Notes under the pieces: model-generated
The model's input: only the letters and a program-made list of their open reading frames with translations
Database searches by the model: none
Told to the model about the DNA's origin: nothing
Shown here: positions 36,229 through 38,096 of the stretch, in pieces
How the letters are laid out: each line of letters starts with the position of its first letter
Position numbering within the stretch: the first letter of the stretch is position 1
Source of the DNA: an uncultured Hormoscilla sp.
GTDB lineage: Bacteria; Cyanobacteriota; Cyanobacteriia; Cyanobacteriales; Desertifilaceae
NCBI GenBank assembly: GCA_963921275.4
Contig: OZ001293.3
Span: 5,696,001 to 5,760,000, forward strand
Direction of reading: 5' to 3'
Length of the DNA: 64,000 bases
Made by a program: the position numbers and the translations under genes

Positions 36229-38096
36229 GTGCGACTCGTTTCGGCCTAACCTGTACAAACACGGAAAAGCCGAGCCAAAATTGGACTGAATGTTTAGAAC
36301 CAAAACTAATCATAATCGGATGGGGTCGAGCCGGGAATCGCTTCCCGACCCTCCCTTGAGGAACCGGACTTGCGATTTTCACCGCATCCGGCTACTGGGT
36401 ACTAGGCCCTTTTCATAGGTAGACTTAATAGGAATTACTTCCGTTAGCCCTTGCCGCCTGTCTTTTCTTCCCTTTCCTGGTTTAGCGAGTGGTTGTTCTG
36501 ATAACCGTTAGTATCACCATTTTCAAGTCAGTTTTACCAGTTATCCATACCTTATCCTCCACTTGCGTTTCGGATTAGTTCCGTGGCTTTTTAGGATTAC
36601 TCATTCCAGCAGCTTCCTAGTATCACCGACCCACGTCAGCGCTGGCTACCCAGCATCATCTACATTACTGTAGATGTTATCCCAGGAATTACCCCGGGCA
36701 TTCGCTTCTTGGGCCATCCCTCCCCCCGTGGCTTGCGCTTAACATCTAACTTGTCCTGATGGACAGCACACGAGAGGTTACTTCGTTCCCTAACAACATT
36801 TCGCGATACCTTTAGGTCCACACTATACCCCGGGAGCTATTTGAGTACTATATTAGCCAGAGTCTAAAACTAATACTAGCTACCATTTCCTTTTTAGGCC
36901 AGCGCATATAGCCTTATTTCGCTGGTTCCTTATAACGAGGCTTGCACATGTTTGCCTGCTCTAACCTTGGATATCTTTCCTAGCGGCGTCACCGGCTTAG
37001 GCTGCCAGTTATCCTACATTTGAGTCCTCGCTTAGCACCACGATGATGTCGCTTCGTAGCACCGAGGACCGGTGTCACCCCCGTACCTGGGGGGAGGGGA
37101 ATTTAACCCCCATGCGGTCAGAGTTCCCGGCTAATGAAACCGGGCTAGCGTTCCGTGTTTGACCACGTTAGGCTAGAACGAATCGCACAGGCTCAATATG
37201 GTAACTCTGGTCATCATGGGGGTTAAATTCCCTCTCCCCAGGTGTGGGGGTGACACCGGTCCTTAGTGCTGCGGAGTGACATCACCGTGGTGCGGAGCAA
37301 GGACTTAAATGTAGGATAGCTGACAGCCCAAAGTCGGCAACTCCGCTAGGAAAGATGCTCATGGTTAGGAAAACGAATCTGTGAAAGCCTCGTTATGTGT
37401 AACCAGCGGAAGAAGGCTTACACGCTGGCCTAAAAAGGAAATGGTAGCTAGTGTTGGCTGTTGCATATGGCCAACATCACACTCAAAGTAGCTCCCGGGG
37501 TAAAGCAGGGACCTAAAAACATCGTGAAATGATACCAGGGAACGAAGTAACTCCACGTGTGCTGTCCATAACTACTCGACTATCGACCGGTGGTCAGGAG
37601 ATAGGGACCAGTTAGATGATAAGCGTAAGCCATGTGGAGAGAGATGGCCCAAGAAGCAAAGGACAGGGGTAACTCCTTGTATAAGTGGTGCAGGAATGTA
37701 CCGGCAGACGTGGGTCGGATATAGTTGGAAATCTTGGGTGGAAGTATCCCTAATACGTACCAAAAATCAGGAGAAATCCTAGATTGTAATATGGACTAAA
37801 ACTCTAGCCGGGTAAAACTTGAAAAGTCCCCTAATGACGAGACAGGGGCAATGTTAGCAAAGAGCGGTATAAGTGGTTTCCTGGATACCCCCCGCGAACC
37901 TTCCGGAGCTAGATACGAAACAGTCCTATCGACTACCATAAAGGGGAAAAACTGCATAAGAAGAGGGACAAAGGGAGCAATCCCCAGTAATCCTGCCAAT
38001 GACAAGGTCCAACTAACCAGTAGCCGTGTGCGATGAAAACCGCATGCACGGTTTGAAAGGGAGGGTTGGGAAGCGATTCCCAGCTCGACCCCTAAT
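36229..38096 (+). mobile_element. ORF-less group II intron in dnaA (outer)
   Basis: 5' GTGCG; DV AGCCGTGTGCGATGAAAACCGCATGCACGGTT; 3' CTCGACCCCTAAT; removal restores the KYV|FSR frame; EBS1 TGCATA (37462-37467) pairs with exon TATGTA. Confidence 0.93.
36320..37188 (-). mobile_element. ORF-less group II intron inserted antisense inside the dnaA intron (inner)
   Basis: Reverse complement starts GTGCGATTCGTT; DV AGCCGGATGCGGTGAAAATCGCAAGTCCGGTT; ends CTCGACCCCAT. Confidence 0.92.

Follow-up and report, generated by a model that had tools for sequence, protein, structure and literature searches.

Opposite-strand nesting of two ORF-less group II introns in a broken dnaA gene of an intron-rich cyanobacterium

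Nested group II introns are known from Thermosynechococcus elongatus, which has 28 introns, among them ORF-less TeI3 introns and TeI3-in-TeI4 twintrons (Mohr, Ghanem and Lambowitz 2010; PMC2882425). In the marine Trichodesmium erythraeum one group II intron of the pair Tr.e.I7/I8 lies in domain I of the other within a conserved protein gene, from which both are removed in vivo by sequential splicing (Pfreundt and Hess 2015; PMC4649490). Methanosarcina acetivorans has nested arrays that arose by repeated homing into introns without effect on host expression, and these arrays have no coding exons (PMC4424553). The host gene discussed here, dnaA, has decayed to a pseudogene in Nostoc azollae (PMC2900214); several cyanobacteria can do without it, and some lack it altogether (PMC7198777).

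We analysed a window of 64,000 nucleotides from a cyanobacterial chromosome (G000:C1:5696001-5760000; coordinates without a contig name are window positions), in which a dnaA pseudogene carries one ORF-less group II intron inside another. As in T. elongatus, ORF-less IIB introns outnumber the RT-bearing ones, insertion is guided by EBS/IBS pairing and the same site of sibling introns has been hit independently. The two genomes differ in that T. elongatus is reported to have 28 introns and same-strand nests, whereas here there are about 450 elements nested on both strands, and host and passenger at dnaA are both ORF-less, with no RT-bearing close sibling found for either family. The Trichodesmium pair resembles the present one in that a group II intron sits in domain I of another in a cyanobacterial protein gene, but our inner intron lies on the opposite strand and dnaA, its host gene, carries frameshifts. 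Repeated homing into introns without effect on host expression is shared with M. acetivorans; the dnaA nest, in contrast, has coding exons on both sides. Loss of the initiator in a genome with many mobile elements and pseudogenes recalls N. azollae and the dnaA-independent cyanobacteria (PMC2900214, PMC7198777), except that here the loss is recent (three of four congeners are intact) and it is group II introns that have entered the gene. In the main texts of open-access papers we found no description of opposite-strand twintrons, of introns in dnaA or of such an intron swarm; that of PMC6520454 mentions neither 'intron' nor 'dnaA'.

The only Rfam hits in the window are two RF00029 domain V/VI matches, one on the minus strand (36320-36396) and one on the plus strand (38019-38096), with bit scores of 44.4 for the inner and 43.1 for the outer intron (gathering threshold 40). 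GTGCG, the 5′ GUGYG boundary, opens both introns, at 36229 (+) and at 37188 (−), and the two are identical at 644 of 842 positions (76.5%). No open reading frame in the nest exceeds 111 aa, both introns being ORF-less and without an RT ORF. The outer intron starts with 89 nt of domain I (36229-36317, +), which are identical to the 5′ ends of uninterrupted 997-nt copies, and continues after the insertion with 908 nt that complete domain I and extend through domain VI (37189-38096, +), as delimited by the RF00029 match and copy comparison. Between these parts lies the complete inner intron (36318-37188, −), 871 nt long and 100% identical to its family consensus. In silico excision of both introns gives ...LNPKYV/FSRFVVG, letter-identical to the uninterrupted site in all four congeners. 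A sequence-only reading of this DNA had proposed an antisense related intron inside an ORF-less group II intron of dnaA, with the frame KYV/FSR restored by excision, and both proposals hold. In dnaA two ORF-less introns of group IIB type are genuinely nested, on opposite strands. The nest is an intron within an intron, as in a twintron, but sequential splicing from one transcript fails for the inner intron, which lies on the opposite strand; it is thus a nested insertion and does not qualify as a twintron in terms of splicing.

The same reading had found the nesting correctly and placed the ends slightly off, giving 999 nt for the outer and 869 nt for the inner intron. After that inner end a C follows at +1 in 138 and at +2 in 139 of 139 inner copies, and this terminal CC is missing from all eight uninterrupted outer copies, each of which is 997 nt long. 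The boundaries therefore shift by 2 nt, to 871 nt for the inner and 997 nt for the outer intron. Inner domains V-VI with the 3′ end ...CCCCATCC (ATCC) then occupy 36318-36396 (−), the end being extended beyond the Rfam match from the copy comparison. With regard to the AY signature of the 3′ end, the AT of the outer intron fits and the CC of the inner one is a variant end, backed by eight of eight empty sites. Once the corrected ends are used, the γ-γ′ interaction between J2/3 and the last base is A-U in the outer intron (J2/3 at 37640-37647, +) and G-C in the inner one (J2/3 at 36714-36721, −). The same pairing is present in 18 of 18 parsed intron families (56 were examined and 38 did not parse; the families are mutually related). 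A base after AAGAAGC in domain III was also considered as γ; it showed no covariation and was the wrong base, and J2/3 was used instead.

Both insertions agree with the pairing rules of the respective families. Outer EBS1 TGCATA (37462-37467, +) pairs with IBS1 TATGTA at the end of exon 1 (36223-36228, +; taken from the sequence and the family target consensus) by five Watson-Crick pairs and one G-T pair. Inner EBS1 AGACTC (36860-36865, −) forms five of six pairs with its flank GAGCCT within the outer intron (37189-37194, −); the two EBS1 pairings had been noticed before and are confirmed. The EBS2 candidate of the inner intron, AAGGTT (36963-36968, −), is complementary to AACCTT at −15 to −10 of the target consensus and forms four of six pairs here. 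The inner family comprises 138 near-identical full copies with a mean divergence of 0.12%, and 61 of them, including the dnaA copy, equal the consensus. Its 133 non-tandem copies occupy 98 distinct sites with the consensus AACCTTA-NN-GAGTCT/A (the slash marks the insertion point), which is the complement of AAGGTT and AGACTC, i.e. both the EBS1-IBS1 and the EBS2-IBS2 pairings that characterise subgroup IIB are found. At +1, the EBS3-IBS3/δ-δ′ position, A prevails among the inner targets (78 of 98) and T among the outer ones (seven of eight); the EBS3 base itself was not located. The site in dnaA fits the family's own target consensus, which upholds the earlier view of a genuine target-directed insertion. 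Its score of 10.0 is below that of 92 of the 133 occupied sites (lower third), and the mean occupancy of sites at this score is 31/2178. The insertion had been assigned to a peripheral loop of domain I; the domain is right, and the MFE structure puts the insertion point not in a terminal loop but on the 3′ strand of an outer-specific stem.

The two introns form a long inverted repeat. Its arms, 36661-37128 against 37200-37700 and 36322-36357 against 38057-38092, include those noticed previously and further ones, and the longest perfect complementary run between outer and inner intron is 30 bp. Folded as one, the 1868-nt composite has an MFE of −997 kcal/mol as compared to −561 kcal/mol for the separate folds, and 559 of the 690 pairs of the composite join passenger and host; a passenger in sense gives 152 such cross pairs and a shuffled one 134. 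The passenger is thereby predicted to trap the host ribozyme, in line with the misfolding that had been proposed. The dnaA transcript would hold only the complement of the passenger, ending directly before its outer-intron complement, and the inner intron, being on the wrong strand, cannot be spliced from it, as had also been stated. Opposite-strand nesting between siblings would be a simple and irreversible route of poisoning, with no splicing out and with predicted pairing in domain I, and it may cap intron proliferation.

Whatever the splicing, dnaA is dead. Exon 1 of the pseudogene (35835-36228, +) begins with an ORF of 98 aa that holds DnaA_N only (PF11638, E 1.5e-14; the start codon is the ORF finder's choice). 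Comparison with the congeners reveals three lesions, all of them outside the introns and overlooked in the sequence-only reading. A 3-nt in-frame deletion at about 35993 (35990-35996, +) removes the Pro of TPNPFARNW that is present in all four congeners. A 13-nt insertion (36100-36112, +), composed of an 11-nt hairpin and a 2-nt duplication, shifts the frame of exon 1, so that translation meets a TGA stop (36129-36131) before it reaches the intron. Finally, an extra C at about 38312 (CC to CCC; 38311-38313, +) shifts the frame in the ATPase domain between Walker A and Walker B, and in exon 2 (38097-39108, +) the AAA+ domain is spread over two frames. With the introns removed, no continuous dnaA frame over domains I-IV results; the frame breaks twice.

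These lesions are reproduced in short-read contigs of the runs X1, X3 and X4, which cover 35600-36254 and 38068-39222 with no other letters and no gaps (four runs were compared for the exons, and X5 had no exon coverage). The contigs were assembled separately from the assembly, although the runs may include its own source. Since contigs of three runs carry both frameshifts, the dnaA lesions are not assembly slips. Single-base indels are present in essential-looking genes of this assembly, one of which we take to be hemB.

The genome has a single dnaA locus and no second copy, and the frames of dnaN, gyrB, dnaB and priA are open. In three of the four congeners (G001-G004) dnaA is open, with 471, 471 and 495 aa, and the intron is missing from all four. 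The G002 gene (L029) has a single-base deletion in a run of C elsewhere in the gene, which is either an error or an independent loss. On the branch of the present genome dnaA has a dN/dS of ~0.13 (5 N, 12 S), similar to the 0.10 and 0.17 of congeners, which indicates that the gene was under selection until recently and that its loss is recent. In a 400-kb sample of G004 with 190 ORFs, 115 single-copy orthologues were compared (44 absent, 20 partial and 11 multicopy ones were dropped); 92 of them are intact, 21 broken and two interrupted by an insertion only. PF00308 has no match in three of the 31 genomes searched. The cumulative GC skew of the chromosome is flat and irregular, and its minimum (2.47 Mb) lies well away from dnaA (5.73 Mb). 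A recent loss of dnaA with intact close relatives offers a natural comparison for how DnaA-oriC replication is given up.

The inactive frame bears directly on the idea, raised in the sequence-only reading, that the backwards intron is a splicing switch which tunes excision of the outer intron and hence DnaA output. The stop precedes the intron and the second frameshift follows it regardless of splicing, so that a switch would have nothing to switch. Splicing coupled to gene expression has a precedent in the dnaN introns of Trichodesmium (PMC12584367). Against this, the intron is absent from all four congeners, the passenger is a fresh unmodified copy, and a promoter/terminator scan found five promoter-like signals as compared to 4.2 ± 2.3 in shuffled sequences, i.e. 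the chance level. The chance that a regulatory switch explains the nest is practically negligible. An assembly artefact of high-copy repeats, either a misplaced filled copy or a chimeric join, has very little chance of being the explanation. None of the contig pieces listed, which come from four runs, shows the outer/inner junction; the 5′ segment of the outer intron continues into the empty site without a branch, and the depth over 36260-36304 is that of this single contig. Contigs drop minor branches, so the missing junction argues neither way, and the depth of the empty-site contig corresponds to an empty fraction of 0.77 (X3) and 0.68 (X4), close to the 0.80 expected for eight empty copies of ten, leaving 23-32% filled. 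The joins of exon 1 with the outer intron and of the outer intron with exon 2 are covered by short-read contigs. The nesting at dnaA is supported by the assembly, by base-exact ends that fit the family target consensus and by recurrence of the pair at a second locus, not by a short-read junction. That second nest (C1:4873643-4876531) lies in other exons and has an identical passenger sequence, and the outer family accordingly consists of ten copies, eight uninterrupted and two, located in different exons, that were entered by this passenger at one identical base. Such a recurrence would be expected if the two introns had spread as a unit, by retrotransposition with cargo or by gene conversion, and the dnaA copy had arrived already nested; the low mean occupancy of sites with this score points the same way. 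We give little credence to such a course. A second filled copy among nine would arise by chance with p ~0.12, the passenger is the consensus of 61 of 138 copies, the two filled hosts have no private change in common, other heavily filled sites were hit independently, and the composite is unspliceable according to the MFE prediction.

The order of events in dnaA is more difficult to judge. The exons have three indels in 1.35 kb, and the two introns have no indel and one substitution (at 38054, the only private change of the outer copy against its family consensus) in 1.87 kb; that all three indels fall in exons has p 0.07, and the order cannot be read directly. According to a toy clock model, which is weak since it uses uniform/flat priors and ignores gene conversion between repeats, insertion of the inner intron was the first lethal hit in 3-7% and the outer intron predated the first lethal hit in 18-33%. 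It is unlikely, though with a real chance of being right, that the introns came first, i.e. that the outer one was spliced in a working dnaA and that the inner one, or poor splicing of the outer one, silenced the gene and the frameshifts followed. Such an order agrees with the sense orientation of the outer intron and its EBS1 pairing (six of six with one wobble), with the recent death of the gene, with sense introns in open frames of housekeeping-looking genes of this genome, with the predicted loss of the host ribozyme and with the higher of the two clock estimates. The lower estimate and the near absence of changes in the introns, as compared to the exons, speak against it. Inactivation of dnaA by an intron on an intron, as suggested earlier, is possible, and unlikely as the first hit. 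A more far-reaching version, in which the backwards intron silenced a working, spliced dnaA through long-range pairing and the lineage is in the middle of a switch to DnaA-independent replication under a load of about 450 introns, appears quite unlikely to us.

The nest is probably neutral debris of two successive retrohoming events into a dnaA that had recently become non-functional. The frameshifts, the dispensability of dnaA, the irregular GC skew, the frequency of antisense nests, the site score in the lower third, the independent hits at other repeated sites, the predicted cross pairing and the clock estimate for the inner intron all support neutral debris. Arguing against it are the low dN/dS and a death of dnaA that overlaps the intron burst, the good EBS1 pairing of an outer intron in sense, like that of a tolerated spliced intron, the lack of a close RT-bearing relative among the families found, the single-base indels of the assembly and the nested junction unseen in short-read contigs. 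If the nest is neutral debris, the outer intron would have entered dnaA in sense at a site matching its EBS1, and the inner one would have followed at its own target. Both would have been moved in trans by an RT/maturase of an RT-bearing intron. The minus strand would be explained by retrohoming attacking DNA, blind to the reading direction of the host. Once inserted, the inner intron would zip up with the ~77% identical domain I of its host and kill the ribozyme. The cell would be unaffected, since full-length DnaA was out of reach in any case and replication of the chromosome is likely to be DnaA-independent, as in several cyanobacteria.

The nest belongs to an intron population of unusual size. 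For the census a profile HMM was built from 33 Rfam hits and 5′ motifs were paired automatically, so that a few long pairs are probably wrong. The chromosome has 481 domain V/VI matches, 449 of them covering domain V, and 479 5′ motifs (about three expected by chance), which gives 388 paired elements that make up 6.6% of C1 and fall into 107 families at 95%. In a comparison of genomes, the number of 5′ motifs is 452 here, 105, 104, 148 and 3 in the congeners and 2-12 in nine other members of the family, several of whose assemblies are fragmented. The load of about 450 introns exceeds several-fold the highest published count for a prokaryote that we found, 101 in a 2022 survey (PMC8919778). Nested elements number 63, with 40 on the same and 23 on the opposite strand; 21 of these 23 come from the 871-nt inner family, and for 20 an uninterrupted look-alike of the flanks exists at another place, two of these being a tandem pair. 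In open frames the 871-nt family has landed 19 times in antisense and 24 times in sense (p 0.54), and the other families 10 times in antisense and 39 times in sense. Altogether 63 of 307 top-level introns lie in sense in open frames, as compared to one of 19 antisense-carrying nests whose roots have bounds, a sample too small for a statement on depletion.

Sense introns in otherwise open frames were noted at C1:1800238, 6446752, 2134479, 1409762, 5580677 and 2638282. From their junction peptides, we take these frames to resemble enolase, zwf, prfC, metH, gltB and queG, respectively, and splicing in vivo is probably needed at these six housekeeping-looking genes. As for the source of the mobility protein, the genome has 93 RVT_1 matches, including full RVT_N-RVT_1-GIIM-HNH frames, and the nearest solved structure to its RT is 6ME0 chain C (E 3.9e-114), which is presumably that of the T. 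elongatus intron. No RT-bearing close relative of the outer or the inner family was found in the genome, the best matches being other ORF-less composites, and all paired RT-bearing introns differ from the ORF-less families in domain V/VI type. The swarm, with its sense introns in housekeeping-looking genes, may serve as a model for spread with a shared helper; this is a property of the genome and not of the dnaA locus.

Other nests show how the 871-nt family behaves elsewhere. Eight of nine copies of one RT-bearing intron family carry an antisense 871-nt intron at one site, and the RT frame is thereby shortened from ~596 to 482 aa; the filled copies are at C1:1056960, 1148034, 3087153, 3651009, 4451120, 5179813, 5986571 and 6406537. 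The non-autonomous family thus knocks out potential helpers. In an RT-bearing family, passengers that share one site belong to at least three haplotypes (one ORF-less family) and two (the other), and different passenger haplotypes at repeated sites mean independent hits. Composite mobility was considered for the RT-bearing family with eight of nine copies filled and is not needed, as the haplotypes differ and diverged hosts, too, are filled at this site. The 871-nt intron also forms exact head-to-tail arrays of two and three copies (C1:824934-826675 and 5447656-5450266), which have no spacer if the terminal CC is counted, and five copies are self-nested at position 768. In the outer intron of the second outer/inner nest there is in addition an element of 1011 nt (C1:4873950-4874960) that has terminal inverted repeats and is flanked by a target duplication of 10 nt.

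The surroundings of dnaA contain further small insertions and repeats. Upstream, an HtrA/DegP-like protease gene (34233-35627) is broken up into several frames, and a local inverted duplication flanks it. The dnaA-dnaN spacer (39109-39402, +) has three exact TTTTCCACA-type boxes at 39120, 39140 and 39316, which we take to be DnaA-box-like sites, and between them two 29-nt hairpin-like repeats (39194-39251). The 20-nt core of this repeat has 66 copies in C1 and is expanded to about seven in G004, and short palindromic inserts similar to the spacer repeats cause frameshifts at other places. The dnaN frame that follows (39403-40659, +) is intact with 418 aa, and its named relatives are all cyanobacterial and distant (54-59% identity). 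In G004, dnaN (L027, G004:C23:~34658) has the 5′ end of a group II intron in sense at a position matching ~39578 of the window, which recalls the dnaN introns of Trichodesmium; the 3′ end lies outside the stretch compared. Further downstream, at ~59383-61656, the dnaB frame of 996 aa has its helicase domain split by about 500 aa in an intein-like manner.
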